Positions 4,008 through 48,766 of a DNA stretch of 49,636 nucleotides are shown in pieces. Within the stretch, counting starts at the first letter, position 1. Each line of letters begins with the position of its first letter. A model generated the notes under the pieces. That model was not told the DNA's origin. It made no database searches and was given only the letters and a program-made list of their open reading frames with translations. A program made the position numbers and the translations under genes. The DNA comes from Candidatus Moranbacteria bacterium RIFCSPLOWO2_12_FULL_48_12 (GTDB lineage: Bacteria; Patescibacteriota; Minisyncoccia; Moranbacterales; UBA1568): NCBI GenBank assembly GCA_001784735.1, contig MFSB01000023.1:1-49636 (forward strand), read 5' to 3'.

Positions 4008-4074
4008 CTCCGTTAGAGAACGCTGCGCCTTGGGCGCGACTTCAGTCGCTTGCAGCGACTTTTCTCTAACGGGG
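4008..4074 (+). repeat. CCCCGTTA-family hairpin element, copy A
   Basis: Arms are CTCCGTTAGAGAA / TTCTCTAACGGGG, 13 bp with one T:G. The interior holds two small hairpins (GCGCCTTGGGCGC and AGTCGCTTGCAGCGACT). The element ends 9 nt before the xerC-like ATG. Confidence 0.8.
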
Positions 4075-4083
4075 TGAATACCT

Positions 4084-5052
4084 ATGACTCCCCTCCAAGA
4101 ACACACAAAACGTTTCCTTGATCATCTCGAAGTCGAGATGAACCGGTCGCCCCGCACTATTGAAAGCTATGGTCGCACGCTTGAAGCCTTTTTTACTTGG
4201 GGCAACCTCCATGTCCCTGAAGATATTACGGCTGAAAAAGTCCGGGAGTACCGGATCTATCTCAACCGCAAGGGAAACGGGCGCGGCGGTACGCTCAAAA
4301 AGAATACCCAGGCTTACCAGGCGATCGTCCTGCGCGCCTTTCTCAAATACCTGGCCAAGCAAGATATTCTGACGCTGGCTGCCGAAAAGATCGAGATCGG
4401 AAAAACCCCCGACCGCCAAGTTGACTTTCTCGAACTCGCGGAGGTAGAGCAATTGATGGAGGCAGCCGTGGGCCAAAGCCTCAAGTCCCTCCGCGACAAA
4501 GCCATCCTGGAACTCTTGTTTTCTTCCGGACTGCGCGTTTCCGAACTGACCAGTCTCGACCGCTACCATCTCAACCTCGATAAGGAAGAATTCAGCGTCC
4601 GCGGCAAAGGAAGCAAGCTGCGCATCGTCTTTATCTCCCCCACCGCCAAAGTGGCCTTAAAAAACTATCTCGATAAACGCACCGATGTCGATCCCGCCCT
4701 CTTTGTCGCCTACGGAAAAAAAGGCCTCGTCAATGCCAAAAACGCCAAACGTGAAGATCAGCGGCCCGCCTCTGGCGAGGCTCGCCATACCGGGCGGCTC
4801 ACGCCAAGAAGCATCCAGCGGCTGGTGAAATACTATGCCAAAAAAGCCGGCATCGGCAAAGATGTCCATCCCCACACGCTCCGCCACAGTTTCGCCACCG
4901 ATCTCCTCGTCAATGGCGCCGATATCCGCTCAGTCCAGTCGATGCTCGGCCATGCCTCCATCACCACCACGCAGATCTATACCCACATCACCGACGAACG
5001 GCTCAAGGAAATTCACCGCTCCTTTCATGCGAAGAGGAAGCGGGGGAAATGA
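4084..5052 (+). CDS. tyrosine site-specific recombinase, XerC/XerD family
   Basis: C-terminal catalytic motifs HTLRHSFATDLLVNGADIRSVQSMLGHASITTTQIYTHI. N-terminal SAM-like core-binding domain (FLDHLEVEMNRSPRTIESYGRTL). Confidence 0.9.
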   Translation: MTPLQEHTKRFLDHLEVEMNRSPRTIESYGRTLEAFFTWGNLHVPEDITAEKVREYRIYLNRKGNGRGGTLKKNTQAYQAIVLRAFLKYLAKQDILTLAAEKIEIGKTPDRQVDFLELAEVEQLMEAAVGQSLKSLRDKAILELLFSSGLRVSELTSLDRYHLNLDKEEFSVRGKGSKLRIVFISPTAKVALKNYLDKRTDVDPALFVAYGKKGLVNAKNAKREDQRPASGEARHTGRLTPRSIQRLVKYYAKKAGIGKDVHPHTLRHSFATDLLVNGADIRSVQSMLGHASITTTQIYTHITDERLKEIHRSFHAKRKRGK

Positions 5053-5203
5053 TAATAGATACAGGATAAGAGATAAGTGATAAAAACAAGGACTGCCTCG
5101 TTTTTTCTTGTTCTTAATTTTTTTCATCTCTTATCACTCATCATGTATCCTCTTCCGCATCACTCATCATGCATCACTTATCCTCTCTCATATCCCTTAT
5201 CAA

Positions 5204-7519
5204 TTATCCTCTTCTCAGAGGAGCGACACCGAGCATCATTTTTTTGACGCCAGAGCGCTTGAAAGCGATGGTGGCCAGCAACCCTTGGATAGAAATGACC
5301 AGGCCGGATCCGAATTGCGGATGTTCCACCATATCGCCTGGTCTCACATCATCCGCAATAAGCGGCTTCTCGTGCACATCGAATTCTCCGCTCTTTTCTT
5401 GGGATATACTTTTGGCTGTCGCCGCGAAGGCGCTCTGCTTTTTTGACACCGCCGGAAAATAATTTACCCTGTTACCGCGCGTAATAGGGTTGCGCGATTT
5501 CTGAAAATGACGCCTCCCGAGCATCCCCGATGACACGCGCGCGGCTTCATCAACGAGATGATCGGGAATTTCCTGGAGAAACCGCGAGGGCGGATTGACC
5601 TGCGTCGCGCCGAAAATCGTCCGCTGCTCCGTATAGAGGAGATAGACTTTTTCTTTGGCGCGCGTCAGGCCGACATACATGAGCCGACGCTCTTCTTCCA
5701 GGTCGCTCGGCGAGAGGGCGCTCCGCGAATGCGGGAAAATGCCTTCTTCCAGCCCCGCAATAAACACGCAGGGAAACTCCAGGCCCTTGGAACTATGGAG
5801 CGTCATCACATGAACCGCTTCGCTCTTCTCATTGATTTCGTCCGTATCCGAAGAGAGCGACACTTCCTCAAGAAAGTGGCGGAGCGCCTCATCCAGGGGC
5901 ATATCGCTGTATTTCTGAGCCACCGATAACAGCTCGGCCACATTTTCCTGGCGCACTTCGCCCTCCGTTGTCCCATCCATAAGGCTCGCAAAGTAGCCGC
6001 TCTTTTTCGCGATGGTATCCAGAAGTTCCGGAAAACGCATATCGGCGCGCGCCTCGATTTCAGAGCGCAAGGAGAGGAATATATCCACGAACTCCTTAAT
6101 GGCTTTGATTTTCGATTCCTTGAGCCCGCTCCCTTCGGGAGTCAGCTGGTACCCGGCATCGAAAAGGATTTGCTCGTTTTCTCGACTGAATCCGATCCAT
6201 CTTTCGAGGGTCGCCTTGCCGAGTCCCCGCTTGGGCTCATTCCCGATCCGCTCGAGCGCCTGGGCATCGCGCGGATTTTCCAAGAGCCGCACATAGGCGA
6301 TCATATCCTTGATTTCTTTGCGCTGATAGAATTTCAATCCGCCGACGACGCGATAATTGATGGAATGACGCAAGAACAGCTCTTCGATGATGCGCGACTG
6401 AGCATTGGTTCGGTAGAGTACGGCGAAATGATTGAAGGGTCGGCCGGCCGCATGCTCCCGCTTGATCGTTTCCGCGACGTAGCGCGCCTCGGCTTCTTCA
6501 TCTTCGGCCGGCACGAGCGTGATCGGTTCGCCCGCCGGCATCTCCGTCCACAATTTTTTGTGGCGCTGGTTCTGATTTTTGGAAATGATGCCGTCCGCCG
6601 CATCGAGAATGATCTGCGTCGATCGGTAGTTGCGATCGAGCGTGATGACCGCGGCCTCGGCATAGTCTTTCTCGAAATTGAGGATGTTTTGGATATCCGC
6701 CTGGCGCCAGCCATAGATCGACTGGTAATCATCGCCGATGACAAAAATATTATTGTGTTTTTTCGCCAAAAGATAGACGAGCAGATACTGCGGATAATTG
6801 GTGTCCTGATACTCGTCCACCATGATATAGCGAAACATATCCTGATATTTCCCAAGCACCTTCGGATGCTCCTGAAAGAGCTTCACCGTGAGGCGGATGA
6901 GATCATCGAAATCGAGCGCGTTTTGCGCCCGCAGCTCCTTTTGATACCGGGCATATACTTTCGCTACGATTTCTTCGTAATAGTTCTGAGCCTGTAGCGC
7001 AAACTGCTCCTCATCGATGAAAGCGTTTTTGGCCCGGGAAATCGCTTCCAAAAGAGCGCGCGGCTTCACCTGATCCGGATTGATCTCCAGTTCTTTCATG
7101 GCTTTTTTCACCAGCGCCTCCTGATCCTGGCTGTCGAGGATATTGAAGCGCTTCTCATAGCCGAGCGCTTCGATCTCGCGCCGCAAGATACGCGAGCAGA
7201 TATTATGGAATGTCCCGATGTACTGCGGAAGCTTGAGACCGCCGTACTCCGCCGCCTCGCTCTGCGACAAGAGCCGCTCTACCCGTTCGCGCATTTCTCC
7301 GGCCGCTTTGTTGGTAAAGGTCACCGCCAGAATATTGTCCGGCACCACTTTTTTCTCATCGATGAGGTAGGCGATGCGATGGGTGAGCGTCTTGGTCTTG
7401 CCCGAGCCGGCCCCGGCCAATATCAAAACCGGCCCTTCCGTCGTGAGAACCGCGCGCAACTGCTCCGGATTGAGACCCTTTTCCCAAAAACGCATAGCGG
7501 AAGAAGATAATGGATGCAT
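5204..7519 (-). CDS. pcrA: ATP-dependent DNA helicase PcrA/UvrD
   Basis: LNPEQLRAV...AGAGSGKTKTLTHRIAYL (Walker A), DEYQDTN, LDRNYRST, VMTLHSSKGLEFPCVFI, YVGLTRAKEKVYL, and a C-terminal Tudor-like tail. The track ORF extends to 7591. The likely start is the ATG at 7519 or 7495. Confidence 0.95.
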   Translation of the reverse strand: MHPLSSSAMRFWEKGLNPEQLRAVLTTEGPVLILAGAGSGKTKTLTHRIAYLIDEKKVVPDNILAVTFTNKAAGEMRERVERLLSQSEAAEYGGLKLPQYIGTFHNICSRILRREIEALGYEKRFNILDSQDQEALVKKAMKELEINPDQVKPRALLEAISRAKNAFIDEEQFALQAQNYYEEIVAKVYARYQKELRAQNALDFDDLIRLTVKLFQEHPKVLGKYQDMFRYIMVDEYQDTNYPQYLLVYLLAKKHNNIFVIGDDYQSIYGWRQADIQNILNFEKDYAEAAVITLDRNYRSTQIILDAADGIISKNQNQRHKKLWTEMPAGEPITLVPAEDEEAEARYVAETIKREHAAGRPFNHFAVLYRTNAQSRIIEELFLRHSINYRVVGGLKFYQRKEIKDMIAYVRLLENPRDAQALERIGNEPKRGLGKATLERWIGFSRENEQILFDAGYQLTPEGSGLKESKIKAIKEFVDIFLSLRSEIEARADMRFPELLDTIAKKSGYFASLMDGTTEGEVRQENVAELLSVAQKYSDMPLDEALRHFLEEVSLSSDTDEINEKSEAVHVMTLHSSKGLEFPCVFIAGLEEGIFPHSRSALSPSDLEEERRLMYVGLTRAKEKVYLLYTEQRTIFGATQVNPPSRFLQEIPDHLVDEAARVSSGMLGRRHFQKSRNPITRGNRVNYFPAVSKKQSAFAATAKSISQEKSGEFDVHEKPLIADDVRPGDMVEHPQFGSGLVISIQGLLATIAFKRSGVKKMMLGVAPLRRG

Positions 7520-19311: not shown

Positions 19312-19414
19312 CCCCGTTAGAAGTCTGACTTGGGATATAGAATAAAAACAAGCGGCTAAAGAAATTTAAAACGGTGGAACTTTCATAGTTGATTTTGACA
19401 GACTTCTAACGGGG
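19312..19414. repeat. CCCCGTTA-family hairpin element, copy C
   Basis: Perfect 16-bp arms CCCCGTTAGAAGTCTG / CAGACTTCTAACGGGG enclose 71 nt. It lies between the pnp stop and the start of the next minus-strand gene. Confidence 0.85.
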
Positions 19415-19432: not shown

Positions 19433-21553
19433 TCAATTATCTTGATTCATCTTGTGCAAAGCGGCCTTGTGCGAAAGGTTGATGCGCCCCTGGCTGTCGA
19501 TTTCTTTCACCACGACCGGCACGATGTCACCAACATGAACGACGTCCTCCACGTTTTCCACGCGCCTGTCGGCCAGCTCGGAGATATGGATCAGACCTTC
19601 CTGATTTGGCAGCACTTCCGCGAACGCTCCGAAGTTCATGATCCGGGTAATGCGCGCCTGAAAAAGCTCCCCAGCCCTCACTTCGCGCGTGATGTTATTG
19701 ATCCATTCTACGGCTTGTTTGGCGCTCGTTTCGTCTGTGGAAGTGATGAAGACCGAACCGTCATCCTCGATATCGATGGACACACCCGTCTCATCGATTA
19801 TCTGATTGATCATCTTGCCGCCAGGCCCAATGACATCGCGGATCTTCTCCGGATTGATATGCAGCGTAATGATCCGTGGGGCGTACGCCGACAAATTGGC
19901 TCGCGGTGCTGGAATAACTGAAAGCATTTTTTCCATAATTTCCAAACGAGCGACTTTCGCTTGGGCGACAGCTACCTTGAGTACCTCCGGCGTCAGTCCG
20001 TCGATCTTGACATCCATCTGCATGGCCGTGATGCCGTCGATAGTGCCGGCCACCTTGAAATCCATATCGCCGTAGTGGTCTTCCAATCCCTGGATATCCG
20101 TCAGCACCTTGTATGCGCCGTCCTGGCCGGTGATGACGCCCATCGCGATGCCGGAGACCGGTTTTTTGATCGGCACGCCAGCGTCCATAAGCGAAAGTGT
20201 GGAACCACAGGTTGATGCCATGGAAGAAGAACCGTTGGAAGAGAGCACTTCGGAAACCAGAATAATCGTGTATGGGAACTCTTCTTTGGAAGGCAGGATC
20301 GGCATAAGGGCTTTTTCCGCCAGCGCTCCATGGCCGATCTCTCTCCGCCCCGGACCGCGCATGGGCTTCACTTCACCGACAGAATACGGAGGAAAGTTAT
20401 AAAAATGGATATAGCGTTTCTTCTCATCCGTTTCCATCGTGTCTATCACCATCTGATCACCAGGCGCGCCGAGCGTCGTCACGGTCAGGGCCTGCGTTTC
20501 ACCGCGCGTAAACAAACCGGTTCCGTGGGTCCGCGGCAGTATGCCCACTTGGCACCAGATAGGACGAATCTCCGTCAACTTACGGCCATCCGGACGCTTT
20601 TCGCTCTTCAGGATATTTTTATGAACAATTTCGTCGGCAGCTTCATCTGAAATAAGCGTGAGAAGTTCATCCAAAGACGCTTGCTCCGGAAAAGCTTGTT
20701 TCGCCCAAGCAGTTACTTTCGTAGAAAGATCTGCCATCGCCTCTTCCATAGCTTTTTTCGGGAGAAGATACAGCGCTTCCGCCAATCCTTCCTTAAGAAA
20801 AGCGGCTTTCACCTGGGTTTCAAATTCATCCGTACCACGAAGCAGCGCCGGAGCGGACTTTTCCTTGCCTACCTCGGCACGGATGCCCTCAATAAAAGCG
20901 GTGATTTTCTGAATCGCCTCAAATCCGAACTGAAAAGCTTCCACCATCTTATCTTCCGTCACTTCCTTGGCGGCCGCTTCGATCATATTGATCTTGTCCT
21001 GCGTACCGGAAAGGAGCAGGTCGAGAGCGCTGGCCTTACTCTCATCGGCACTTGGATTGAGGATGAGCGAACCGTTTTCCGCCATACCGACACGCGCTGC
21101 CCCGATCGGGCCACCCCACGGGATATCCGAGAGAGTCAATGCCGCCGAGGCCGCAATCATCGCCACCGTATCAGGATTGTTTTCGCCGTCATATGACAGC
21201 GTAGTCACCACTACCTGAACATCGTTGCGCATCCGACTGTTGAACAAAGGACGAATCGTCCGATCTACGGCGCGACCCGACAAAACAGCGTCGTCTGACG
21301 GACGCCCTTCCCGCTTGATGAAGCGCGAGCCCTTGATCTTTCCCGCGGCATAATAACGCTCTTCATAATCCACCATCAAGGGAAAATACCCCGAGATTTT
21401 CGACGCCCCCTTGCTCATCGTGGCCGCTGCCAAAACGACCGTATCACCATAGCGCACAGTGACGGAACCATTAGCTTGCTGTGCCAAAAGACCGGTTGTG
21501 ATGGTCAATTCGCGGCCTCCCAATTGTAAAGACCATTTCTTCTCTTCTTGCAT
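19433..21553 (-). CDS. pnp: polyribonucleotide nucleotidyltransferase (PNPase)
   Basis: Two RNase PH domains, then KH and S1 (GELFQARITRIMNFGAFAEVLPNQEGLIHISELA). The conserved N-terminus starts at MQEEKKW (ATG at 21553). The track ORF extends to 21601. Confidence 0.95.
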   Translation of the reverse strand: MQEEKKWSLQLGGRELTITTGLLAQQANGSVTVRYGDTVVLAAATMSKGASKISGYFPLMVDYEERYYAAGKIKGSRFIKREGRPSDDAVLSGRAVDRTIRPLFNSRMRNDVQVVVTTLSYDGENNPDTVAMIAASAALTLSDIPWGGPIGAARVGMAENGSLILNPSADESKASALDLLLSGTQDKINMIEAAAKEVTEDKMVEAFQFGFEAIQKITAFIEGIRAEVGKEKSAPALLRGTDEFETQVKAAFLKEGLAEALYLLPKKAMEEAMADLSTKVTAWAKQAFPEQASLDELLTLISDEAADEIVHKNILKSEKRPDGRKLTEIRPIWCQVGILPRTHGTGLFTRGETQALTVTTLGAPGDQMVIDTMETDEKKRYIHFYNFPPYSVGEVKPMRGPGRREIGHGALAEKALMPILPSKEEFPYTIILVSEVLSSNGSSSMASTCGSTLSLMDAGVPIKKPVSGIAMGVITGQDGAYKVLTDIQGLEDHYGDMDFKVAGTIDGITAMQMDVKIDGLTPEVLKVAVAQAKVARLEIMEKMLSVIPAPRANLSAYAPRIITLHINPEKIRDVIGPGGKMINQIIDETGVSIDIEDDGSVFITSTDETSAKQAVEWINNITREVRAGELFQARITRIMNFGAFAEVLPNQEGLIHISELADRRVENVEDVVHVGDIVPVVVKEIDSQGRINLSHKAALHKMNQDN

Positions 21554-21899
21554 ATGTGCGTACCTGTTTTCAGACAAGAAAAAGAAGAACAAAAGATTCA
21601 AAGCACAAAAGTCGGAAAGTGAAGCCTTAGCGGAACCCCGTACAGTCCCGTTAAAATGGGGCTGATGCGTGGGTAAAAGCTTTACTCTTTGATCTTTGAG
21701 ATTTGAACTCTTTTCAAGTCTTCCCTGTCCAAAAAAAAGGTTGTTAATGAACCCAGCACCTTCACCTCAGAGTGTTAAGCTCTGCGAGAAGGGTTTATAT
21801 TTCCGTTCATCCACGCGACGAAATCGCAAAAGAATCCTGAAAGGTGCTGGGTGAATATATTTACTCCCGCACTCTACCGAAAATACTGCCTTTTGTCAA

Positions 21900-21998
21900 C
21901 CCCGTTAGAGAACGCTACGCCCTTGGCGCGACTTCAGTCGCTTGCCCCGTTAGAATAGATATTCTAACGGGGCTTGCAGCGACTTTTCTCTAACGGGG
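21900..21998 (+). repeat. CCCCGTTA-family hairpin element, copy B (a copy-A homologue carrying a nested insertion)
   Basis: Arms are CCCCGTTAGAGAA / TTCTCTAACGGGG, 16 bp if the CAA/TTG extension is counted. The interior is collinear with copy A apart from the extra 28-bp hairpin at 21945-21972. Confidence 0.85.
21945..21972. mobile_element. 28-bp mini-hairpin CCCCGTTAGAATA-GA-TATTCTAACGGGG nested in copy B, flanked by CTTG/CTTG
   Basis: Copy A reads AGTCGCTTGCAGCGACT. Copy B reads AGTCGCTTG[CCCCGTTAGAATAGATATTCTAACGGGGCTTG]CAGCGACT. This is a clean insertion with a 4-bp direct duplication. Confidence 0.7.
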
Positions 21999-22075
21999 TT
22001 GCCAAAAGGCCGATCCCTATGCTAGCTTCCAATCAATGTCCGTTAATAACTGAATAACCAAGAAAGGGCTCTACC

Positions 22076-31779: not shown

Positions 31780-31890
31780 CCCCAGTTACATGTTTTAGAA
31801 ACATTGTAACTCTATGGAAAGACGTAAGACGTAGTCGCCTATCGGCTTTCACTTACCATTAACAAAGGTATTCCTAAACATGTAACGGGG
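31780..31890 (+). repeat. CCCCGTTA-family hairpin element, copy F (with conserved apical core)
   Basis: Arms CCCCAGTTACATGTTT / AAACATGTAACGGGG with a one-nt bulge. Central core GTAAGACGTAGTCGCCTATCGGCTTT (31824-31849). Flanked by CTTG on both sides. Confidence 0.85.
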
Positions 31891-31891
31891 C

Positions 31892-31920
31892 TTGCCAAAA
31901 ATGAAAAGTCCGGCTATACT
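31892..31920 (+). promoter_or_regulatory. sigma70-type promoter candidate for rpsA
   Basis: TTGCCA, 17-nt spacer, TATACT. The -35 box starts 2 nt after the last G of hairpin F. Confidence 0.55.
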
Positions 31921-36856: not shown

Positions 36857-37786
36857 ATGCTGGAAAAATTGCAGCTCCACACGCTCATCCTGTCGGCCTG
36901 GCGCGCCTCGCTCTCCAAACGGCTGCCGTGGATTTTCGGCTCCCTCCTGGCTATCGCGGGGGTCATCGAAAGCCGGATTGCTGCTAGGCTTCCCGATACC
37001 GCCTCTTTCCCGGAATTCTTGAATATCATTTCAGAAAAGAACGGGGAGGCGCTGTTTTCCTTTCTCTTGATTTTTATTTTCCTCTTCAGCCTTGAGATTT
37101 TCGGAAAAAGCAATCTCATCGTCTCTTTGTCATTCGTGACTGGAAAAACCAACCTTCCCAACTACCCGGACAAGCTCGCCGCCATGGGAAAAAATTTCTT
37201 CCGGATGCTCCTCCTCGAATGTCTCGCGCTGTTTTTTCTTCTGGCGGTCACCTTGATATTCTCTCTTCCCTTTCTCATCGCCTCTTCGAAAAACCCGGAA
37301 GCGATGGATACGCTCCTCGGTCTCGGTCTGCTCGCTTTCCTCCCCATCACTATCGTTGTCTTTTTCATCTGGCAGTTCGCGCTCTTCTACCTCCTCCTCT
37401 CTCCCCTCCGGATCCGTGGATCCATTGAGGCTGGCAGCTCGCTTTTCTCTCGTTTTATTTTCCCCAGCCTCCTGTTCGGCCTTTTTTCTTTCGCGCTGAC
37501 AGCTCTCTTTACTTTTTGCACAAATATCATTATCCTAGGCATTACTGCTCTTTCAGAAAGGGCTGGTTTGCCGCTTGGAACGACCGCTGCTACTCTCGTG
37601 GTCGGCTTAGTATTTTTCACCTGGTTCTTCATTTTCCAGCAAGCGCTCTGGCTGGCCTTCTTCAGATCCATCGCCGGCCCGCCTAGACTCGGCGAGGCTG
37701 GCCAAGACAAAACGGAAGAACTCATCAAAGAAAAAGAGCCTGTGCTGGACAACCAGACTCTCCCCGAAATCCCTCCGGCCCAGTAA
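36857..37786 (+). CDS. hypothetical polytopic membrane protein
   Basis: 309-aa ORF with six or more hydrophobic helices, directly after ftsH. No motif. Confidence 0.55.
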   Translation: MLEKLQLHTLILSAWRASLSKRLPWIFGSLLAIAGVIESRIAARLPDTASFPEFLNIISEKNGEALFSFLLIFIFLFSLEIFGKSNLIVSLSFVTGKTNLPNYPDKLAAMGKNFFRMLLLECLALFFLLAVTLIFSLPFLIASSKNPEAMDTLLGLGLLAFLPITIVVFFIWQFALFYLLLSPLRIRGSIEAGSSLFSRFIFPSLLFGLFSFALTALFTFCTNIIILGITALSERAGLPLGTTAATLVVGLVFFTWFFIFQQALWLAFFRSIAGPPRLGEAGQDKTEELIKEKEPVLDNQTLPEIPPAQ

Positions 37787-37804
37787 CATTCTTATCTCTA
37801 TTTT

Positions 37805-37878
37805 GGACAATTAGCTCAGTTGGTTAGAGCGTCACATTGACATTGTGAAGGTCACTGGTTCGAATCCAGTATTGTCCA
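37805..37878 (+). tRNA. tRNA-Val (anticodon GAC)
   Basis: Cloverleaf folded by hand: GGACAAT TA GCTC AGTTGGTTA GAGC G TCACA TTGACAT TGTGA AGGTC ACTGG TTCGAAT CCAGT ATTGTCC A. CCA is not encoded. Confidence 0.9.
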
Positions 37879-37880
37879 CA

Positions 37881-37956
37881 AGGTGTAACGGGGTGAAGTT
37901 AGAGCGCTACATTGACATTGTAGAGGTCTCCTGTTCGAATCAGGATACACCCACCA
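37881..37956 (+). pseudogene. tRNA-Val(GAC)-like copy with disrupted D arm
   Basis: AGGTGTA AC GGGG TGAAGTTA GAGC G CTACA TTGACAT TGTAG AGGTC TCCTG TTCGAAT CAGGA TACACCC A CCA. Length and the anticodon, T and acceptor arms are normal. The 5' D-stem strand is replaced by ACGGGG, which is the hairpin-family terminus, so the D stem cannot pair. Confidence 0.6.
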
Positions 37957-38008
37957 TTTTATTCAAAAGCAATTAGCTCAGGCTTGCCCGCCTAGACGTC
38001 GAGGCTGG

Positions 38009-38119
38009 CCCCGTCACCTATTTTAGTAAAAATGTATGCTAGCTGTGGACGAAAGCCGCTAGGCGACTACGTCTTACAATTTGCATAAACCACAATCTCT
38101 TCCTGAATAGGTGACGGGG
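38009..38119 (-). repeat. CCCCGTTA-family hairpin element, copy H (core in inverted orientation)
   Basis: Perfect 14-bp arms CCCCGTCACCTATT / AATAGGTGACGGGG. The core AAAGCCGCTAGGCGACTACGTCTTAC (38052-38077) is the reverse complement of the F and G core. It is preceded by a tRNA 5' fragment CAATTAGCTCAG (37971-37982). Confidence 0.85.
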
Positions 38120-38293
38120 TGAAGTTAGAGCGCTACATTGACATTGTAGAGGTCACTGGCCTGCCCCGTTGTATTTCATTCGATAACCAGGAAAAGGTAC
38201 GACGTAAGGCGAAGCCGCAACAATGGTAGCCACTCAAATAAAACGATTCCAACATTAGAAATACAGTGGGGTTCGAATCTGGACAGACCCACA
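38109..38293 (+). pseudogene. decayed tRNA-Val-like copy interrupted in the T arm by hairpin copy I
   Basis: AGGTGACGGGGTGAAGTTAGAGCGCTACATTGACATTGTAGAGGTCACTGG, then CCTG plus element I, then TTCGAATCTGGACAGACCCA. The acceptor and T stems no longer pair. Confidence 0.6.
38164..38271 (+). repeat. CCCCGTTA-family hairpin element, copy I
   Basis: Arms CCCCGTTGTATTTC / GAAATACAGTGGGG, 14 bp. The two non-Watson-Crick positions are G:T and T:G. It sits exactly between ...GGTCACTGG and TTCGAAT of a tRNA-like T arm. Confidence 0.8.
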
Positions 38294-38337
38294 ACCCAAT
38301 TAAGGCATTCAAGTGAGGGATGAAGGTCACTGGCTTG

Positions 38338-38375
38338 TCCCGTAGCATCCCGCCTTAGCGGGATTGGTACCGGGA
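38338..38375 (+). repeat. short hairpin (TCCCGTA...TACCGGGA) splitting a third AAGGTCACTGG / TTCGAAT tRNA remnant
   Basis: GAAGGTCACTGG-CTTG-TCCCGTAGCATCCCGCCTTAGCGGGATTGGTACCGGGA-TTCGAAT. The inner stem is ATCCCGC/GCGGGAT. Confidence 0.55.
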
Positions 38376-38432
38376 TTCGAATTGCCTCCTTCGTCTTAGA
38401 CTTCGGGCGGCCAAACAGTATCATCCACCAAC

Positions 38433-38479
38433 AAAAAAACTCGCTTCACCTCTCTTGAGAGAAACTGGGCGAGTTTTTT
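38433..38479. terminator. bidirectional rho-independent terminator candidate
   Basis: AAAAAACTCGC ... GCGAGTTTTTT stem flanked by an A-run and a T-run, 17 nt beyond the stop of 38496..39554. Confidence 0.7.
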
Positions 38480-38495
38480 ATCCTCCATTTTTTCG

Positions 38496-39554
38496 CTAAA
38501 TTCCTCCTGTCGTAGTATTGGATAACGTGGGCGTACTCGGATTGACCTGGATGCTCCGCTGTAGAACGCTCTGCGTAAATGGAGCCGCCGGTCCGAGGAT
38601 GCCGGTCGCTTGCTTGAGCACGGAACCAACCTGGCTATTCACGCCACCGATCTGTCTTTGAAAATTTGCCTGCACTTGCCCTATGCCAGTCGTAACCAGT
38701 CCAGAAACCACCTTATTGGCCATAGCCGCTATAACACCAGAAGCAAGCTCTCCCGGATTGGATGCGGCTGCAATAATCTGATTGGGGAGGTTTTGGATAT
38801 TGGTTGTGGCCGCCTGGATAGCTCCGGCCGGCGCTATCACCATCCCATTTTGTTTAGCCGGCAAAAATCCCGACGAAGTGGCCTCGATTTCCGCCGCCCG
38901 CTGCTCCATTGCCAGCTTGTTCTGATAGGCCTCTTCCGCTTTCAAAGAATAGCCATACGGGTTGTTGTATGGATTAGAAAAGAAGGCGTTAAAGGCTCGG
39001 AAGTCCCCTTCTGCAAACATCGCCTGCGGACTGGCGGTATATTCCTCCAGGTTCAGCGTGCCTATCGTCCCTTTTCCGACGATCGCTTGTTTACCGACAG
39101 ACTGCAAGTACGAAGCGTAGCTCCCGCCGATTCCCCCCATGTCACCGATACCGATATAGTTCGCTTGAGCCCCCTTGCCGCGCGTCGTCAAGGTAAAAAA
39201 ACTATTCATATACAGATCGGTCCGCTGCTGCGGCCTCCGATACAAGAAATCGTCAAAGCTGGTGATGAAGCGTGCCTGCCCCCCCGCTCCCCCGCCGATG
39301 AGCTGCCCCACCTGATTGTTGAGCATCTGCACGGCCGCCATTTTGAGCGACCCGAGCAAAGCACCTTCGATCTGACGCGCAATTTGTTCCATCGTCTGCT
39401 TCATAATAGCTGCCGCCATATTCGCCCCCCATGCATCAGCGTGTGCGGTTTGAGGCATCATAAAAAACATCCCGCTAACAAAAATCATCAATAGAGAAAC
39501 TGCCGCCTTCCTTGCTGATGTTCTCGAATTTTTTCTGTTTTTAGATAAAATCAT
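38496..39554 (-). CDS. hypothetical secreted protein
   Basis: 352-aa ORF. N-terminal signal or anchor (AAVSLLMIFVSGMFFMMPQTAHA), then a Gly/Ala/Gln-rich mature region. No recognisable motif. Confidence 0.6.
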   Translation of the reverse strand: MILSKNRKNSRTSARKAAVSLLMIFVSGMFFMMPQTAHADAWGANMAAAIMKQTMEQIARQIEGALLGSLKMAAVQMLNNQVGQLIGGGAGGQARFITSFDDFLYRRPQQRTDLYMNSFFTLTTRGKGAQANYIGIGDMGGIGGSYASYLQSVGKQAIVGKGTIGTLNLEEYTASPQAMFAEGDFRAFNAFFSNPYNNPYGYSLKAEEAYQNKLAMEQRAAEIEATSSGFLPAKQNGMVIAPAGAIQAATTNIQNLPNQIIAAASNPGELASGVIAAMANKVVSGLVTTGIGQVQANFQRQIGGVNSQVGSVLKQATGILGPAAPFTQSVLQRSIQVNPSTPTLSNTTTGGI

Positions 39555-40797: not shown

Positions 40798-42747
40798 TTA
40801 CAATATATTTATACTTTTGTCAATACTCTTACAAAACTGCTTCTTGGAAGTAGCCAAGCCTAAAATAATCCACAACAAAAGCTGCCCCTGCTGTATATCC
40901 CAAAAGTAATGATCAAAAAGCATAATTAATATGATGACAACCAATAAGGATCGAAAAAGATAAGGCACAATAACTTTCTTGTCACTTTCTGAATACTCCA
41001 TACGCTTGGTGGCTAAAGAATGTTCCACGTGGAACATTTTTATATAACTAGACAAAGAATTGTTCCACGTGGAACATTTTTGCATTGGTAGATGGGGAAT
41101 TGTTCCACGTGGAACATTTTTACTGTTTCTCAAAAAGACAAAGGCTAAAAACCACAGAAACAAACCAATCCCGACTGAACCGGTTTCGCTGAAGATAAGC
41201 AAAAATACATTATGGATCGGCTGTAATTGCCATAATAATAACTTTTCAGTGAAAAAGTGCTGCATATCAAAGACGTATTGTCCTATACCTAAGCCTTCAA
41301 ATAAATATCCCTTAAATAAGCCTCTAATCGAATTTATATAAAATAACCGCTCTACAAATGGCTGAATGATAAAAAGCTTTAAATTAACAAAGAACACTAT
41401 CATCATCACCATAACGATTCCCCATACGATAAGTAAATGTTCCACGTGGAACATTTTGCTGAACACTCTCATTACCGATTTATAACAAATGTTCCACGTG
41501 GAACATTCAGATACATGATCGGTTGGCAAACTTTGAAATGTTCCACGTGGAACATTTTGCGCGTTACTATCCAAATGTTCCACGTGGAACATTTTGCGTA
41601 TTCCAGAAACAAGCACTATAAGCCCAATAATAAAGGCTATAATGGCAGATTTAGAAAAGCTGAAGGAAAGTGCCAACAGCTGTATAAAAATAAGCATCCT
41701 GTAGAGCCAAACACTCATAAAATGTTCCACGTGGAACATTTTAGCATTTGTAGATGGGCGGTTGTTCCACGTGGAACATTTTGTTAACAACCATGCTATA
41801 GAACTATATATTGTTCCACGTGGAACATTTGGTATATTATCGGATTGTTCCACGTGGAACATTTTTGACTTAAATATCAGCGGATAAACCATTGTTATGA
41901 GTAAAGATAGTGCCAAAAAGCCACCCAGTATGTTCGGATGAGGGAAAAATCCGTAGGATCTGATAAAAACATCACCGTTTATGACTATCTTGGCTATTCC
42001 CGGATCGTGTGCATTGAAAATACTCTCTCCCAAAATGGTTAATCCCAATGATTTTTGGCTTATAAACTGTAAAATTGCCACTATAGACTGAAAAAACCCT
42101 GAAATAATGGCTATAGTCAAGGTTATTTGTAGGATGTTCCACGTGGAACATTGTGAAAAATAACCCAGTAACTTACTTATAAATGTTCCACGTGGAACAT
42201 TTTGCACATTATTATTCAAATGTTCCACGTGGAACATTTTGGAATTGACAGATGGAAGATTGTTCCACGTGGAACATTCTTCTACTGATGCCCGCAATGT
42301 TCCACGTGGAACATTGCAAATAAGAATATAGAGATATAATAAAAACCCTTCAATAAGCCTAAAAAACGCTACCATAGCTAATGGAACACTTTCTGACCAG
42401 AAAATAGATAGCCCGGACCAAAAAATGAGGAGTGCCGGGATAAAAATAGGGAGAAGCAAATGTTCCACGTGGAACATCTTTCTCCAGTAAGATATTGACA
42501 GTATTGTAGTTTTGTTTTCTAATATATATACTCCCAAGGTCGCAACCAATAAAATATCGGAAAGATACAAAGATACGTCCAGATACTCATTGAATGAACC
42601 ATCCGGCGAAAAAACAGCGAGAACCTTGCGGATGGAGAAGGGGAAGGAAAGAAGGAAAAAGACAAATAAAATAGTATGCAAACGCACAGAAGCAAAAGCC
42701 TGCTTCAGATTGTGAGAGGATGCGTGGAATGACATAAATCGCTTCAT
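40798..42747 (-). CDS. O-antigen ligase / Wzy_C-family membrane protein carrying in-frame palindromic repeat modules
   Basis: 649-aa ORF stays open through an AT-rich region. Many TM helices. Wzy_C-like motifs FFPHPNILGGFLALSLLI and QPIHNVFLLIFSETGSVGIGLFLWFLAF. The peptides MFHVEH (x7), NVPRGT (x5) and CSTWN (x5) are the three frames of one DNA palindrome. Confidence 0.75.
   Translation of the reverse strand: MKRFMSFHASSHNLKQAFASVRLHTILFVFFLLSFPFSIRKVLAVFSPDGSFNEYLDVSLYLSDILLVATLGVYILENKTTILSISYWRKMFHVEHLLLPIFIPALLIFWSGLSIFWSESVPLAMVAFFRLIEGFLLYLYILICNVPRGTLRASVEECSTWNNLPSVNSKMFHVEHLNNNVQNVPRGTFISKLLGYFSQCSTWNILQITLTIAIISGFFQSIVAILQFISQKSLGLTILGESIFNAHDPGIAKIVINGDVFIRSYGFFPHPNILGGFLALSLLITMVYPLIFKSKMFHVEQSDNIPNVPRGTIYSSIAWLLTKCSTWNNRPSTNAKMFHVEHFMSVWLYRMLIFIQLLALSFSFSKSAIIAFIIGLIVLVSGIRKMFHVEHLDSNAQNVPRGTFQSLPTDHVSECSTWNICYKSVMRVFSKMFHVEHLLIVWGIVMVMMIVFFVNLKLFIIQPFVERLFYINSIRGLFKGYLFEGLGIGQYVFDMQHFFTEKLLLWQLQPIHNVFLLIFSETGSVGIGLFLWFLAFVFLRNSKNVPRGTIPHLPMQKCSTWNNSLSSYIKMFHVEHSLATKRMEYSESDKKVIVPYLFRSLLVVIILIMLFDHYFWDIQQGQLLLWIILGLATSKKQFCKSIDKSINIL
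41019..41120. repeat. palindrome array A (3 copies of TGTTCCACGTGGAACA)
   Basis: 16-mers start at 41021, 41061 and 41101, a 40-bp period. Confidence 0.95.
41436..41595. repeat. palindrome array B (4 copies)
   Basis: 16-mers start at 41438, 41490, 41539 and 41576. Spacings are 52, 49 and 37. Confidence 0.95.
41721..41865. repeat. palindrome array C (4 copies)
   Basis: 16-mers start at 41723, 41763, 41812 and 41846. Spacings are 40, 49 and 34. Confidence 0.95.
42133..42315. repeat. palindrome array D (5 copies)
   Basis: 16-mers start at 42135, 42184, 42221, 42261 and 42298. Spacings are 49, 37, 40 and 37. Confidence 0.95.
42459..42478. repeat. solitary copy of the palindrome
   Basis: 16-mer at 42461-42476. 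Confidence 0.95.
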
Positions 42748-42914: not shown

Positions 42915-42987
<73 letters not shown>

Positions 42988-43086
42988 CCCCGTTAGAGAA
43001 AAACATCGATCGTTTTAAGCATTCCTGAAGGTTTTCTTGAAGAGCCGCTTCTGAACCATGAATGATGTCTGTTTTTCTCTGACGGG
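42988..43086 (+). repeat. CCCCGTTA-family hairpin element, copy D
   Basis: Arms CCCCGTTAGAGAAAAACA / TGTTTTTCTCTGACGGG, 17 bp with one T:G. It starts at the nucleotide after the tRNA-Ala discriminator base. Confidence 0.8.
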
Positions 43087-43160
43087 ATCCACATCACACA
43101 ATACAAACGAGAAAAGAGTATTGGTGTGGAATACTCTTTTTTACTATCCTGAAAAAACAG

Positions 43161-43240
43161 CCCCGCCACTGTAGTTCAATGGATTAGAGCTATCCCGTCC
43201 GTCCTAAGGGAGAGATGGAGGGGTTCCTGCCCACCAGCGC
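43161..43240 (+). pseudogene. degenerate tandem duplicate of tRNA-Arg
   Basis: GTAGTTCAATGGATTAGAGCTATCCCGTCCGTCCTAAGGGAGAGATGGAGGGGTTCCTGCCCACC is collinear with the intact gene. It has an extra GTCC in the anticodon loop, and the T loop and acceptor do not pair. Confidence 0.6.
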
Positions 43241-43244
43241 GTAT

Positions 43245-43317
43245 GCCTCTATAGCTCAATGGATTAGAGCTATCCCGTCCTAAGGGAGAGATGGGGGTTC
43301 GATTCCCTCTAGGGGCA
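43245..43317 (+). tRNA. tRNA-Arg (anticodon CCT)
   Basis: GCCTCTA TA GCTC AATGGATTA GAGC T ATCCC GTCCTAA GGGAG AGAT GGGGG TTCGATT CCCTC TAGGGGC A. Confidence 0.85.
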
Positions 43318-43350
43318 CAAAAAACCACTCAAATTATTGTCTTCATCTCT

Positions 43351-44809: not shown

Positions 44810-44852
44810 GCTCGAGCAAAAACGAGCAGACAATAATTCGAAAATTGAGAAT

Positions 44853-45446: not shown

Positions 45447-45488
45447 TTTCCCTCTACGTTTTCCGATCATGTTCTCCATCGATGCTCA

Positions 45489-46679
45489 CTACACCATGTG
45501 AGCTTTTGGTATCTCGAGCAAGTATCTGATTAGCTCGTCAACCGATCGGATATCCGAGAAAGGAAGTTGTCCCGAACCGCGGAAACAGATCCCTTGTTTT
45601 ACGTTCCCATGAAATGCGTTGGCGAGCAGGGACTCTATGCAGAACCGACCTGCCGTTGTCGGCTCCATATCGCAAAGGCCGCAGTAGGAAAGGCAGCTCA
45701 CGCCTCGCCGGCACATATTCCGCGTGATGTGAGCGCTTTGGATAGCCTTTTCTCGTTTGAGATAGCCCTCGAGCCAGGGTGTTGCGACCGCCCTCGCGGG
45801 AAGCCCTGCCGTACTCATAAAGACCCGCATATCTTCGGGTGTAGCGGCGAGGAGCACGTGTTTGAAGTTGGGATGTGCGTCGCCTTCTTCCGTAACGGCA
45901 AAAGCGGTGCCGATCTGCACCGCAGAAGCTCCCAGGGAGAGAATCTCGCGGATCTTTTCGGGAGAATTGATGCCTCCAGCGACAATTACGGGTATCTCTC
46001 CTTTCGCGATGCCGAGCTCAGCAAAAACTTTAAAGACCTCGGGAAGAACGATCGGAAAGTCGAACCTTACATCCGCCACTGCCGCCACATTCTTAGCACC
46101 CAGATGTCCACCCGCACGACCGGGATGTTCGATTACGATGGCATCGGGCAGACGGTGGTAACGACCCATCCAGCGCTTGAGAACGACAAAAACCCCTCGA
46201 GCTTCCGAAAGTATCGGGATCAGCGCCACATCCGGATACTCTTTGGTAAGCTTCGGTAAATCAAAGGGAAGCCCCGCTCCCATGACGATCGCATTAACCC
46301 TGCTTTTACAAGCCTGGCGCACGTGATCTTCCCATTCGGTTATCGCTTTCATCACATTGACAGCAAGAAATCCTTCTTTGCCACAGATGTCCCGCGCCAA
46401 CGCAATCTCTCGGCGGAGCGCTTCCAAATTGGCTTCGATAACAAGGGCATTGTCACGGCTCTCTTCAGTGCGCGCGAGGAGATCGGGATGAAGCTGGCGT
46501 AGTTCCACGCTGGCAATCGTTCCCATCGCCCCCAATTTTTCGCCCGTCGCATCGATTACCCTCGGTTTTGCAACCGTTCCTGCTAATCTGTGGGCCGAAA
46601 TGGCCACTCCCATCCCGCCTTGCACTACGGGAAGAAGTTTTTTTCCTTTAATGTGAAATGTTTGTTCAAAAAGTAGCAT
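45489..46679 (-). CDS. nitronate monooxygenase / FabK-like FMN oxidoreductase with Cys-rich C-terminal extension
   Basis: LLPVVQGGMGVAIS, IVMGAGLPFDLP, GGHLG and VIVAGGINSPEKIREILSLGASAVQIGTAF. The tail has CRRGVSCLSYCGLC...FCI. Start at MLLFEQTF (46679). Confidence 0.75.
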   Translation of the reverse strand: MLLFEQTFHIKGKKLLPVVQGGMGVAISAHRLAGTVAKPRVIDATGEKLGAMGTIASVELRQLHPDLLARTEESRDNALVIEANLEALRREIALARDICGKEGFLAVNVMKAITEWEDHVRQACKSRVNAIVMGAGLPFDLPKLTKEYPDVALIPILSEARGVFVVLKRWMGRYHRLPDAIVIEHPGRAGGHLGAKNVAAVADVRFDFPIVLPEVFKVFAELGIAKGEIPVIVAGGINSPEKIREILSLGASAVQIGTAFAVTEEGDAHPNFKHVLLAATPEDMRVFMSTAGLPARAVATPWLEGYLKREKAIQSAHITRNMCRRGVSCLSYCGLCDMEPTTAGRFCIESLLANAFHGNVKQGICFRGSGQLPFSDIRSVDELIRYLLEIPKAHMV

Positions 46680-46830
46680 GTGAGCTCCTTCTATCGTTGT
46701 TAAAGAATGTCCTGCAGTAGACAAAGCATACCAGAAAACGGCGCTTTGACAAAAAGCCATCCTGATAAAAAAGGACTCCGCCTAGCGTTTTAGCTAGGGG
46801 AGTCGTGTCGTAATAAAACGCTTGTTGCAG

Positions 46831-47415
46831 TTAGCAGGCGAAAAGTCTCGCATTTTGGCCCACATTAACCCTCAAGGTGTAAGGGAGAGCATCGGCTAGG
46901 GCAGGAATCAAAAATGGATAGCGTCCTTTGTTTTCGAGAATCCACCTTTCAACATCGCCTACACCGACGCGGATATCCATACCATACTCACCCTCAAATT
47001 GAGTATAGTACAGCCAGGCAATATCCCTCCTAAAAACCATCTCAGGAATGTTGCCCTTCACACAGTTGATTTTCAGTTCAGTTAACCAGTCCCTATTCAC
47101 TACATATTGCGAGGTCGGGAAAAGAACTTTCCTGAAATAAGCCGATTGCTTTACTTGGGCGATTCGCCCAAGATACAAATACTTTCCGCCAATCTTTTTT
47201 TCACTGCTTGCATACCTGTACACGATTAGTACCGGCTCTCCTTGGTGGCAGGCAAAACGCTCGGCTAAAGTCCGAAAAAAACGTCGGCGCAAGATCATAA
47301 CCCGGATACGCGCCATAAAGCTCGGCCAAATTTTCGGATCGAGGTGCCGTATATCTGCCTTACCGATCAAGCCGGTAAGCCGTTCTCGCGTACTCAGCCC
47401 TTTCTGTGCACTCAT
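46831..47415 (-). CDS. hypothetical protein
   Basis: Start set at MSAQKGLS (47415) because the upstream part of the track ORF overlaps tRNA-Leu. No motif recognised. Confidence 0.5.
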   Translation of the reverse strand: MSAQKGLSTRERLTGLIGKADIRHLDPKIWPSFMARIRVMILRRRFFRTLAERFACHQGEPVLIVYRYASSEKKIGGKYLYLGRIAQVKQSAYFRKVLFPTSQYVVNRDWLTELKINCVKGNIPEMVFRRDIAWLYYTQFEGEYGMDIRVGVGDVERWILENKGRYPFLIPALADALPYTLRVNVGQNARLFAC

Positions 47416-47512
47416 GGGACATTCTTTCCTAAAAAAGATTATTAAGATTACGCTCTGTAAATTCATTAAAACAATAAATTTGCCAAACGGCAAATTTGTC
47501 GCTTTTTGGTTG

Positions 47513-47594
47513 TGGGTCAGGTGGGACTCGAACCCACACGCCTTTCGGGCACAACATTTTAAGTGTCGCGCGTATACCATTCCGCCACTGACCC
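47513..47594 (-). tRNA. tRNA-Leu (anticodon TAA)
   Basis: Reverse complement: GGGTCAG TG GCG GAATGGTATA CGC G CGACA CTTAAAA TGTTG TGCCCGAAAGGCGT GTGGG TTCGAGT CCCAC CTGACCC A. It has a long variable arm. Confidence 0.9.
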
Positions 47595-47649
47595 CTATTT
47601 GTGTCTTTACCAAATTCCGGATTCCAGATTCAAAATTCTTTTTATTATG

Positions 47650-47720
47650 AGGTCCGGAGCGGAGTTGAACCGCTTTAAAAGGTTTTGCAGACCTTTGCCT
47701 AACCGATCGGCCACCGGACC
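47650..47720 (-). tRNA. tRNA-Cys (anticodon GCA)
   Basis: Reverse complement: GGTCCGG TG GCC GATCGGTTA GGC A AAGGT CTGCAAA ACCTT TTAA AGCGG TTCAACT CCGCT CCGGACC T. The U73 discriminator is expected for Cys. Confidence 0.9.
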
Positions 47721-47775
47721 TTTTATCAAACAGAACATCGTCAGTCTATCGAAGTTGGAGGAGGGCGTCAATTCA

Positions 47776-47884
47776 CCCCGTTAGATATTCAAGACAGTCT
47801 CTACTATGTAAAATACTGTAAGGCGAAGCCGCCTTACGGCTCTGATAAATTTTTACTACACACGCTCACTAAATATCTCACGGG
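47776..47884. repeat. CCCCGTTA-family hairpin element, copy E
   Basis: Arms CCCCGTTAGATATT / AATATCTCACGGG with one mismatch. Inner hairpin GTAAGGCG-AAGC-CGCCTTAC. Confidence 0.7.
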
Positions 47885-47930
47885 ACAAGAAAACACCCCG
47901 CTTGAGTAGCAGGGTGTTTTCTGTTTTGTT

Positions 47931-48482
47931 TTACTCTATCACTTGCGCCACCAAGTTGCGGCGACCGAAAGCGAAAGCTTCCGCTTTGGTCTTCACATAG
48001 ATATCGAAGTGATTGCCTTTGATAGCTCCGCCGCGGTCTTCACAGCGGAGTTCTCCCACGCCTTCAATACTGACCTTGGTACCAAAAGGAAAAGCCGGCG
48101 GACAAGCAAGCGTCCGTTTTTCAGCTACCTTTAGTCCGGAAGCGGTAATGCCGTCGTTCTTGCCGCACTCATCAGCCGCCGCCGTATAGGCAGAAGCGTT
48201 GATGACAAACTTCTCTTTTGGAAGAGCTGCCCATTTATCAGCCTGTTTTTGCTTCCAACGCTTGAGAGTTTTTTCCTCGAAAGACATCGGGGCGGGAGCC
48301 GCTGCCAGCGTCTGCTTGTCTTCAACCAGGAATGTCCAATCCAGTAAGAATGGGTCATTTTTGAAGTCATAGAGGCTCGGCAGGGGAAGCTCAACTTTGG
48401 TTTCCGCGGCCTGAACAGTGTTTATATTGGAAAGGATCACGATCATGGCTACAGCGAAAAGAAAACCTTTTCGAAATATCAT
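47931..48482 (-). CDS. 3D-domain (MltA-like) cell-wall protein
   Basis: Signal peptide, then INASAYTAAADECGKNDGITASGLKV...GTKVSIEGVGELRCEDRGGAIKGNHFDIYV, which carries the three conserved Asp of the 3D domain. Confidence 0.85.
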   Translation of the reverse strand: MIFRKGFLFAVAMIVILSNINTVQAAETKVELPLPSLYDFKNDPFLLDWTFLVEDKQTLAAAPAPMSFEEKTLKRWKQKQADKWAALPKEKFVINASAYTAAADECGKNDGITASGLKVAEKRTLACPPAFPFGTKVSIEGVGELRCEDRGGAIKGNHFDIYVKTKAEAFAFGRRNLVAQVIE

Positions 48483-48625
48483 AGATTGCTCTTACGGATG
48501 AGCCGTCCTTTGGCGAGCCTCGACCAATCAACCTGATTGGGCGGGCTGCAACCCTCGGAAGGGCGACGGGCCGGCTTTGGGTCGAGCCTCGCCTACTGGC
48601 GGGCTGGCTTTTTGGCCAACTGAAC

Positions 48626-48654
48626 ATCCTAGCACAAAAACAGAAACAAGTCAA
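48626..48654 (-). promoter_or_regulatory. sigma70-type promoter candidate for the 3D-domain gene
   Basis: The minus strand reads TTGACT (48654-48649), a 17-nt spacer, then TAGGAT (48631-48626). The -35 box abuts the end of hairpin G. Confidence 0.5.
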
Positions 48655-48766
48655 CCCCAGTTACATATTCAAGGTAAGTATTATGGCTTTTTAGAGCCAT
48701 AAGACGAAGTCGCCTATCGGCTTTTAACCTCAAGAGAAGTACATCTTTGCCAAATATGTAACGAGG
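48655..48766 (-). repeat. CCCCGTTA-family hairpin element, copy G (with conserved apical core)
   Basis: Arms CCCCAGTTACATATT / AATATGTAACGAGG. Core TAAGACGAAGTCGCCTATCGGCTTT (about 48700-48724). Flanked by TCAA, or GTCAA, on both sides. Confidence 0.8.

Follow-up and report, generated by a model that had tools for sequence, protein, structure and literature searches.

Small hairpin elements with paired 13-bp ends in a Moranbacteria chromosome and across bacterial phyla: signs of mobility and association with tRNA genes

The chromosomal stretch of 49,636 nucleotides analyzed here (the window) contains a series of small hairpins with shared termini, and the question is whether these hairpins are RNA structures kept by the host or mobile DNA. 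The window is a bacterial chromosome segment with a G+C content of 48.7%. Its genes include those for PcrA, PNPase, GyrA, S1, FtsH, a XerC/D-type recombinase and six tRNAs. The S1 protein displays 87–95% identity to proteins of Candidatus Moranbacteria metagenome-assembled genomes (MAGs), and the host is therefore a bacterium of the candidate phyla radiation (CPR)/Patescibacteria. The original prediction held that the pairing of the hairpin ends is under selection, most simply in transcribed RNA hairpins, and that the hairpins are, or were, mobile. The pairing and the mobility are borne out below. We think it rather probable that the hairpin is a non-autonomous mobile DNA element, like a miniature inverted-repeat transposable element (MITE), whose two ends would be recognized together as one stem.

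The terminal sequence CCCCGTTA occurs 11 times in the window against an expected 0.98 ± 0.86, and none of the shuffles got to 11. Every copy folds into a hairpin closed by its terminal stem, with z from −2.6 to −9.4 relative to dinucleotide shuffles. The over-represented termini and the common fold place the copies in one family. The copies first listed, including a mini-copy nested in copy B, are all real and at their given positions (Table 1), except that D and E are each one base longer (terminal G to A); the orphan 3′ end had been missed. With its additional base, copy D is flanked by a TCCA duplication. The core proposed to be common to F, G and H is exact in all three, and the kinship of E and I is seen in their interiors, which cluster together with those of two other CPR loci.

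One genome per species was scanned with the pattern CCCCGTTAGA-N70-100-TCTAACGGGG, which yielded at least 120 loci, and metagenomes were scanned for hairpins with a T-loop motif, which yielded at least 120 loci or contigs. The counts of flanks, stems, interiors and locations given below come from about 135 independent copies (n = 123–148). Almost nothing but its two ends defines the element. Each arm comprises 13 bp, with 10 conserved bases (CCCCGTTAGA / TCTAACGGGG) and about three positions that vary and stay complementary. The stems of 135 distinct copies from other genomes have a Watson-Crick pair at position 11 in 124 copies, at position 12 in 116 and at position 13 in 98, whereas shuffling the columns predicts 47, 66 and 40. 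Position 11 is A:T in 63 copies, G:C in 27, T:A in 25 and C:G in 9. There are 26 different matched triplets at positions 11–13, often several within one locus and several within one genome. The compensatory covariation first noticed in the window thus extends far past it, and the pairing of the ends is actively maintained. From position 14 on, pairing is near the shuffled level, and this sharp 13-bp limit is found in every phylum. As judged from the sequences, ten sequence-specific positions plus three at which only the structure is kept look like the recognition site of a mobilizing machinery, not like a host RNA.

The 120 listed genome loci are all in MAGs; by a rough estimate, about 17 chance matches to the 20-base pattern are expected. 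The phyla among the listed loci are Patescibacteria (many classes), Omnitrophota, Desulfobacterota, Planctomycetota including Brocadia, Nitrospirota, Elusimicrobia, WOR-3, Stahlbacteria, Cloacimonadota and others. In these loci, and in 120 or more metagenome contigs, termini of the CCCCGTTAGA type enclose segments of about 100 nt. A viral contig collection gave no match to the element pattern. The literature on the element sequence, on MITEs in CPR and Omnitrophota and on tRNA introns in CPR yielded no description, and we could not match the element to any described family.

Comparison within the window and with relatives supports the view that the element is, or was, mobile. Copy B equals copy A with a 28-nt mini-copy and a second CTTG added, and A has a single CTTG at that place. 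The two copies thus represent a filled and an empty site within one genome, and the nested copy a clean insertion with CTTG duplication. Copies F (CTTG), G (TCAA) and D (TCCA) are also flanked by repeats. Copy A is absent upstream of xer in three relatives (L252–L254), where the conserved block ...CATAACGTAAA leads straight into the start-codon region. Copy C is absent between the orthologous genes of L127 and L129, and D is likewise absent in these two relatives, which have a different sequence at that site. The whole F segment, together with an adjacent 174-aa gene, is absent in L127–L130. The insertion of H is common to the closest relative, L130, and at the site of I the homologous remnant in L127 has an uninterrupted T arm. 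Apparent differences of 100 nt in L122 were considered as insertions and rejected, as they are runs of N.

The flanks define the target. Both flanks fit R-TNNA-Y, with T at −4 in 102 and A at −1 in 99 of 123 copies. The insertion sites are Y-N-N-R tetranucleotides, mostly T-N-N-A. Identical 4-nt direct repeats flank 63 of the 123 copies, against 0.5 expected. In the listed loci the flank 4-mers show no stem-like covariation within them and no pairing beyond them. A palindromic target as a general rule was rejected for lack of pairing past the 4-mers, being true only of copy B, L026/L086 and tRNA loops. A guide-like link between the flank 4-mer and positions 11–13 showed no obvious correlation in the few copies compared by eye, where AAT occurs with TGAA, TAAA and TTGA.

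We propose a model in which an enzyme acting in trans would see both ends as one stem, in a hairpin, a cruciform or a single-stranded form. Such recognition is suggested by the maintenance of pairing rather than sequence at positions 11–13 together with the insertion of the 28-nt copy itself, and by a constraint whose limit of exactly 13 bp is common to all phyla. If a symmetric target is cut with a stagger of 4 nt, as by a DDE transposase, perfect flank repeats would result. One flank 4-mer may sometimes be carried along with the element as a coupling sequence. This is suggested by the bimodal spectrum of flank mismatches described below and by the clean tRNA-hosted cases, in which the hairpin is inserted together with TGAA or CAGG at just one of its sides.

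The repeats and the termini could also belong to an ordinary double-stranded MITE moved by a DDE transposase of the IS1380/piggyBac type, encoded elsewhere in the genome or community, with the matched ends coming from master-copy inheritance or from gene conversion between the arms. The fixed 4-bp flank repeat and the symmetric R-TNNA-Y target are typical of staggered DDE cuts. The termini start with CC...TAGA like CCTAGATTCTACGT of ISEcp1, a faint resemblance, and the inverted repeat is 13 bp, as in piggyBac, which has 13-bp ends CCCTAGAAAGATA and a TTAA duplication. However, this origin does not explain why three variable positions are complementary in 26 combinations, several of them in one small genome, and it leaves the bimodal spectrum and the unrelated 4-mers of about half of the copies unaccounted for. 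A 28-bp double-stranded element would hardly be able to synapse its own ends, and no long copy was found and no IS1380-like open reading frame (ORF) in 1.76 Mb. We regard it as doubtful that the element is of this kind.

Several observations weigh against a mobile element recognized by its stem. Identical flanks are absent in about half of the copies, the Hamming distance between the flanks being 0, 1, 2, 3 and 4 in 63, 13, 27, 13 and 21 copies. This bimodal spectrum is not what simple decay of target duplications would give. The recurrent flank pair TTTA...TGAA lengthens the stem instead of repeating. Concerted evolution of the palindrome arms could be another route to matched positions 11–13, and the 28-nt copy may be the product of a deletion in place rather than a mobile unit. 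Six strain contigs of 99–99.9% identity show no gain or loss of any copy, and movement is therefore infrequent at that time scale; the only real difference between strains is in L125, where part of the nested copy is deleted. No autonomous copy or transposase was found in the window or in the 120 listed genome loci, and tblastn with the ISEcp1 (IS1380) transposase found no match in the 1.76 Mb of fetched loci, which are parts of genomes.

The window was originally described as free of transposase, RAYT and IS200-type genes, and none is found among its genes. Long end pairs with matching flanks contain only apparent housekeeping genes, as judged by N-terminal sequence without a family scan. When the ORFs of the 120 listed loci were clustered, the groups were response regulators, ABC ATPases, EF-G and similar proteins, with no transposase among them. 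In L009 (MAG DX4.bin27), identical 94-nt copies lie within 325-bp inverted repeats (nt 2046–2369 and 4832–5155) that flank a 686-aa gene, possibly as an invertible or duplicated segment. The 686-aa ORF was considered as a transposase and rejected, since it encodes an Ig-like-domain protein. A functional link between Xer and copy A, which lies immediately upstream of the XerC/D-type gene, was likewise rejected, as three orthologous loci are without the element; the gene is a chance, lineage-specific neighbour.

The copies measure 28–120 nt, have no coding capacity and leave 4 to about 95 nt between the arms. The interior is similar to that of any other copy in about 40 of 148 cases; roughly three quarters are unrelated. 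Four kinds of module recur, namely the E/I/F/G/H core, a two-hairpin module (for instance in L037, L043, L072 and L077), a bulged AGGA followed by a CGCGG-type stem, and complete tRNAs; the two-hairpin and bulged-AGGA modules were recognized by eye. The copies are intergenic in 135 of 142 cases and occupy tandem, divergent and convergent spaces in the proportions of intergenic spaces overall.

These interiors and locations bear on the view that the hairpins are transcribed, structured RNAs which the host retains as terminators, insulators or processing sites or as a family of small RNAs. The stable folds of all copies fit it, as does the presence of several copies in tRNA clusters, with D abutting a tRNA 3′ end. 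Some interiors, namely the E/I/F/G/H core and the two-hairpin family, recur across phyla with apparent compensatory changes by eye. It had also been noted that five of the six non-Watson-Crick stem positions would be G:U pairs on the gene strand; inspection confirms the count, but it is not significant (binomial p ~0.11). On the other hand, the stem is not followed by a U-tract, the 3′ flank consensus being T-N-A-A-Y, as opposed to the GC-rich stem and U-run of an intrinsic terminator, and there is no bias in gene orientation. The comparison with Rfam that was recommended with the original prediction was run with Rfam 15 on the window and 18 loci, with the gathering threshold as cut-off; it returned only tRNAs, rRNA and riboswitches, and no family that matches the element. 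Down to E = 10, window nt 37700–38600 gave only tRNAs and unrelated families. Most interiors are unrelated, A, C and D are missing at the orthologous sites of close relatives, and the paired stretch is exactly 13 bp in all phyla, 10 of its bases being invariant. That the pairing is kept most simply in transcribed RNA hairpins is thus not supported, and we consider a host-kept RNA very unlikely. An RNA-level role is possible only for the tRNA-hosted subset.

Table 1. Copies of the element and associated features in the window. Stem, uninterrupted length with G:T allowed, or irregularity.
Feature	Position (nt)	Length (nt)	Strand	Flanks	Stem	Remarks
Copy A	4008–4074	67		TAAA/TGAA	14 bp	9 nt upstream of the xer start codon; fold z −6.2
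Copy C	19312–19414	103		TTTA/CGAG	16 bp, perfect	
Copy B	21900–21998				16 bp	A-type body holding the nested copy; fold z −9.4
Setting of copy B	21888–22010					Host palindrome GCCTTTTGTCAA / TTGCCAAAAGGC, with B at its centre
Nested mini-copy	21945–21972	28		CTTG (21941–21944)/CTTG (21973–21976)	13 bp	
Copy F	31780–31890			CTTG direct repeat	Bulged A after CCCC	Shared core 31825–31849 (+)
Orphan 3′ end AGGTGTAACGGGG	37881–37893		+	Then TGAA		In place of the 5′ D-arm of the tRNA-Val-like sequence 37881–37953
Copy H	38009–38119	111		CTGG/TGAA	16 bp	D loop of a tRNA-Val pseudogene; core 38052–38076 (−), reversed relative to F and G
Copy I	38164–38271			CCTG before	Two G:T pairs	Between the T-stem 5′ strand and TTCGAAT of the tRNA-Val pseudogene of H
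Copy J	38338–38375			CTTG before		Short, divergent, TCCCG...CGGGA; same T-loop position in a further tRNA-Val fragment
Copy D	42988–43087			TCCA direct repeat	17 bp	Exactly at the 3′ end of tRNA-Ala(GGC)
Copy E	47776–47885			TTCA/CAAG	One T:C mismatch	Flank pair typical of tRNA-hosted copies elsewhere; 55 nt from tRNA-Cys
Copy G	48655–48766			TCAA direct repeat	Bulged A after CCCC	Shared core 48700–48724 (+)

Copy F is followed by CTTGCCAAAA (nt 31891–31900), which is similar to the palindrome around copy B. The two sequences may represent a shared target or a larger composite repeat.

The association of the elements with tRNAs is strong. About 5 of 12 copies in the window are in or adjoin tRNA sequences. 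Beside an intact tRNA-Val are tRNA-Val-like fragments whose D and T loops are broken up by H, I, J and the orphan end. The tRNA-Val-like sequence that begins with the orphan end scores 32.4 bits with the Rfam tRNA model, is not called by ARAGORN and has an intact homologue in L130, relative to which its acceptor stem is kept through a compensatory change of C:G to T:A. The intact tRNA-Arg(CCT) gene at nt 43245–43318 is preceded immediately upstream by a partial, degenerate duplicate of itself (around nt 43155–43240). In the listed genome loci, the 139 copies have 10 tRNAs inside them or no more than 60 nt away, where about 1.4 would be expected (~7-fold), and 5 copies contain a whole tRNA.

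In the listed loci of the metagenome scan with the T-loop motif, 116 of 121 matches carry a complete tRNA. The cargo tRNAs among them are Ala-CGC (29), Val-CAC (21), Val-TAC (14), Pro-TGG (13), Pro-CGG (13), Val-GAC (8), Thr-TGT (5) and others. Where examples were read, the inner tRNA mostly sits, co-oriented, in the anticodon loop and sometimes in the D loop of an outer tRNA from its own amino-acid family. The outer cloverleaf can be called at 75 of 110 loci. Of the 73 outer tRNAs with a findable T arm, 48 have a perfect 7-bp acceptor stem, compared with 5% in the null. The outer genes often bear extra small hairpins in the T loop.

The flanks of tRNA-hosted copies are not duplications. They form the pair TTCA...CAAG, found at 40 or more loci, and a mirror class CTTG/CCCG/CACG...TGAA. 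In the mirror class and in L200, cutting out the hairpin and 4 nt restores a canonical loop whose anticodon is that of the cargo. No contiguous excision gives a 7-nt anticodon loop in the TTCA...CAAG class. The sequence in Val hosts is TT-N-A-TT-CA[hairpin]CAAG-Y, N being the first anticodon base of the cargo. Vertical co-inheritance of the nested tRNAs was rejected, because inner and outer tRNAs show no correlation in their divergence, and an inner tRNA is no nearer to its own outer one than to others.

The restorable loops raise the alternative that the element is an intron or processing cassette of tRNA transcripts, its stem being the site at which an RNA endonuclease and a ligase would take the hairpin, with or without an inner tRNA, out of the host tRNA, with the intergenic copies escaped or mobile. 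The complete tRNA in nearly all listed metagenomic matches, mostly in the anticodon loop where read, agrees with this, as do the intact acceptor stems of the outer tRNAs and one compensatory acceptor change between the orthologous loci L163 and L184. Nevertheless, the commonest flank class cannot be restored, about a third of the outer tRNAs are unrecognizable and many have further insertions. The divergence of the inner tRNA does not track that of the outer halves, and the hosts in the window are pseudogenes beside an intact tRNA-Val. The 4-nt DNA duplications are not expected from such a cassette, and we know of no protein-dependent tRNA splicing pathway in bacteria, which also counts against it. 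As an account of the whole family it appears unlikely.

The nested copies may be tRNA-encoding introns, or selfish elements that destroy a tRNA gene and supply its replacement so that only matching insertions survive, or their hosts may be decaying; the window's own tRNA hosts look like decaying ones. We put forward, tentatively and with more doubt than confidence, that the hairpin cassettes that carry complete tRNAs, co-oriented in the anticodon loop of a tRNA of the same family and spread across phyla, are introns or replacement elements, of which the window copies would be the dispersed form without cargo. In the one case they might be introns of bacterial tRNA genes that encode a tRNA and depend on protein, the first of their kind. 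In the other they might be a selfish element that kills the host tRNA, supplies a substitute and so becomes indispensable. The tRNA-hosted form has a fair chance of being categorically new.

Other insertions in tRNA genes were observed alongside. L071 (nt 740–960, minus strand) and L073 (nt 3510–3800, minus strand) contain tRNA-in-tRNA nests in which the intervening hairpins have the quite different termini TACCCGAGAAGA...TCTTCGGGA and GGCGATGACATTCA...TGAATGTTGCCGC, and the nested architecture is thus not confined to the CCCCGTTAGA family. Other hairpins, of 20–40 nt, interrupt the T loop of a tRNA gene or tRNA remnant in L127 (nt 20690–20710), L130 (nt 7276–7316) and the right flanks of L182, L188 and L238, in Moranbacteria relatives and metagenome contigs. 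The small hairpin of L188 has related ends, CCCCCACACC...GGTGTGGGGG, and the flanks CTTG...TGAA.

The window contains further repeats. About 25 copies of the palindrome (AAA)TGTTCCACGTGGAACA(TTT) are crowded at nt 41016–42315, within a mechanically called ORF on the minus strand (nt 40798–42747). The orthologue of this ORF in relatives is a weak match to Wzy_C, and the TGTTCCACGTGGAACA repeat would encode a repeated peptide on either strand. A second family of hairpin repeats, ATAGTACTTTTCTTGC...GCAAGAAAAGTACTAT, with perfect stems of 12–16 bp, is present at nt 1047–1074, 1338–1373 and 2126–2161. The 25-nt repeat CCAGCCTCGCCGAGTCTAGGCGGGC is located at nt 37677–37701 (−), 49041–49065 (+) and about 37983–38008, with one copy within the ORF at nt 36857–37786. 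An extra copy of CCAGCCTCGCCGAGTCTAGGCGGGC is present in the 99%-identical strain contig L125, at the position matching window nt 21819, and a related sequence occurs in L252. The strains are thus polymorphic for the insertion of a second, very small mobile repeat.

If the ends are indeed recognized as one stem, a mobile element with hardly any sequence of its own would be spreading very widely among candidate-phyla bacteria and other uncultured anaerobes. The family would then be useful as a marker for horizontal exchange among these phyla and as a lead to a structure-specific DNA or RNA enzyme. The elements make up about 2% of this 50-kb CPR stretch, at odds with the picture of a streamlined genome. 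The link with tRNAs raises the questions of whether tRNA splicing exists outside the group I intron paradigm and whether an element can secure itself by replacing the tRNA that it destroyed. The insertions will also lead tRNA finders to miss or miscall tRNA genes in CPR MAGs.

The closest comparison is with bacterial MITEs, such as Correia/NEMIS of Neisseria, RUP and ERIC/IRU, which are short (under about 300 bp), have no ORF, occur in many intergenic copies and form hairpins when transcribed. The present element resembles them in size, terminal inverted repeats, copy number and presence or absence at given sites, while a duplication of fixed length is found in only 63 of 123 copies. It differs in that only 10+3 bp are conserved, the interior is free, the hosts span many phyla, tRNAs are carried as cargo and no partner insertion sequence is known. 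To IS1380 and piggyBac it is similar in the CC...TAGA start, the T...A-rich flank duplication of 4–5 bp and, for piggyBac, the 13-bp terminal repeat; it differs in the extra CCGT within the terminus, the matched variable positions and the transposase, which was not found in 1.76 Mb.

Integron attC sites, the ends of IS200/IS605 and REP/RAYT are single-strand DNA sites recognized by structure. GTTAGA/TCTAAC of the element fits the attC R-box consensus GTTRRR/YYYAAC. As in attC and IS200/IS605, pairing rather than sequence is kept in part of the stem, and a tetranucleotide abuts the element. In contrast to attC, which reads 5′-RYYYAAC ... GTTRRRY-3′, the order is reversed, with GTT... on the 5′ arm of both strands, and the copies are solitary and dispersed, with no arrays and no intI. 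The 4-nt direct repeats are a further difference from attC and IS200/IS605. Unlike REP/RAYT elements, which are imperfect palindromes of 20–40 nt, the element has no GTAG head, is longer and has a free interior, and the window has no Y1-type gene.

The Rickettsia palindromic elements and the small dispersed repeats of cyanobacteria are also tiny and palindromic, nest in one another and land in RNA genes, but their sequences are unrelated, their interiors conserved and their host ranges narrow. The introns with bulge-helix-bulge (BHB) motifs in archaeal and eukaryotic tRNAs and the group I introns of bacterial tRNAs similarly occupy anticodon, D or T loops, and several can be present in one gene. 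The present insertions differ from them in having no evident BHB motif or group I fold, in enclosing a second complete tRNA and in junctions that mostly cannot be spliced to a canonical loop. The stem of 10+3 bp, the free tRNA cargo, the range of phyla and the tRNA-in-tRNA arrangement set the element apart from the bacterial MITE families known to us.

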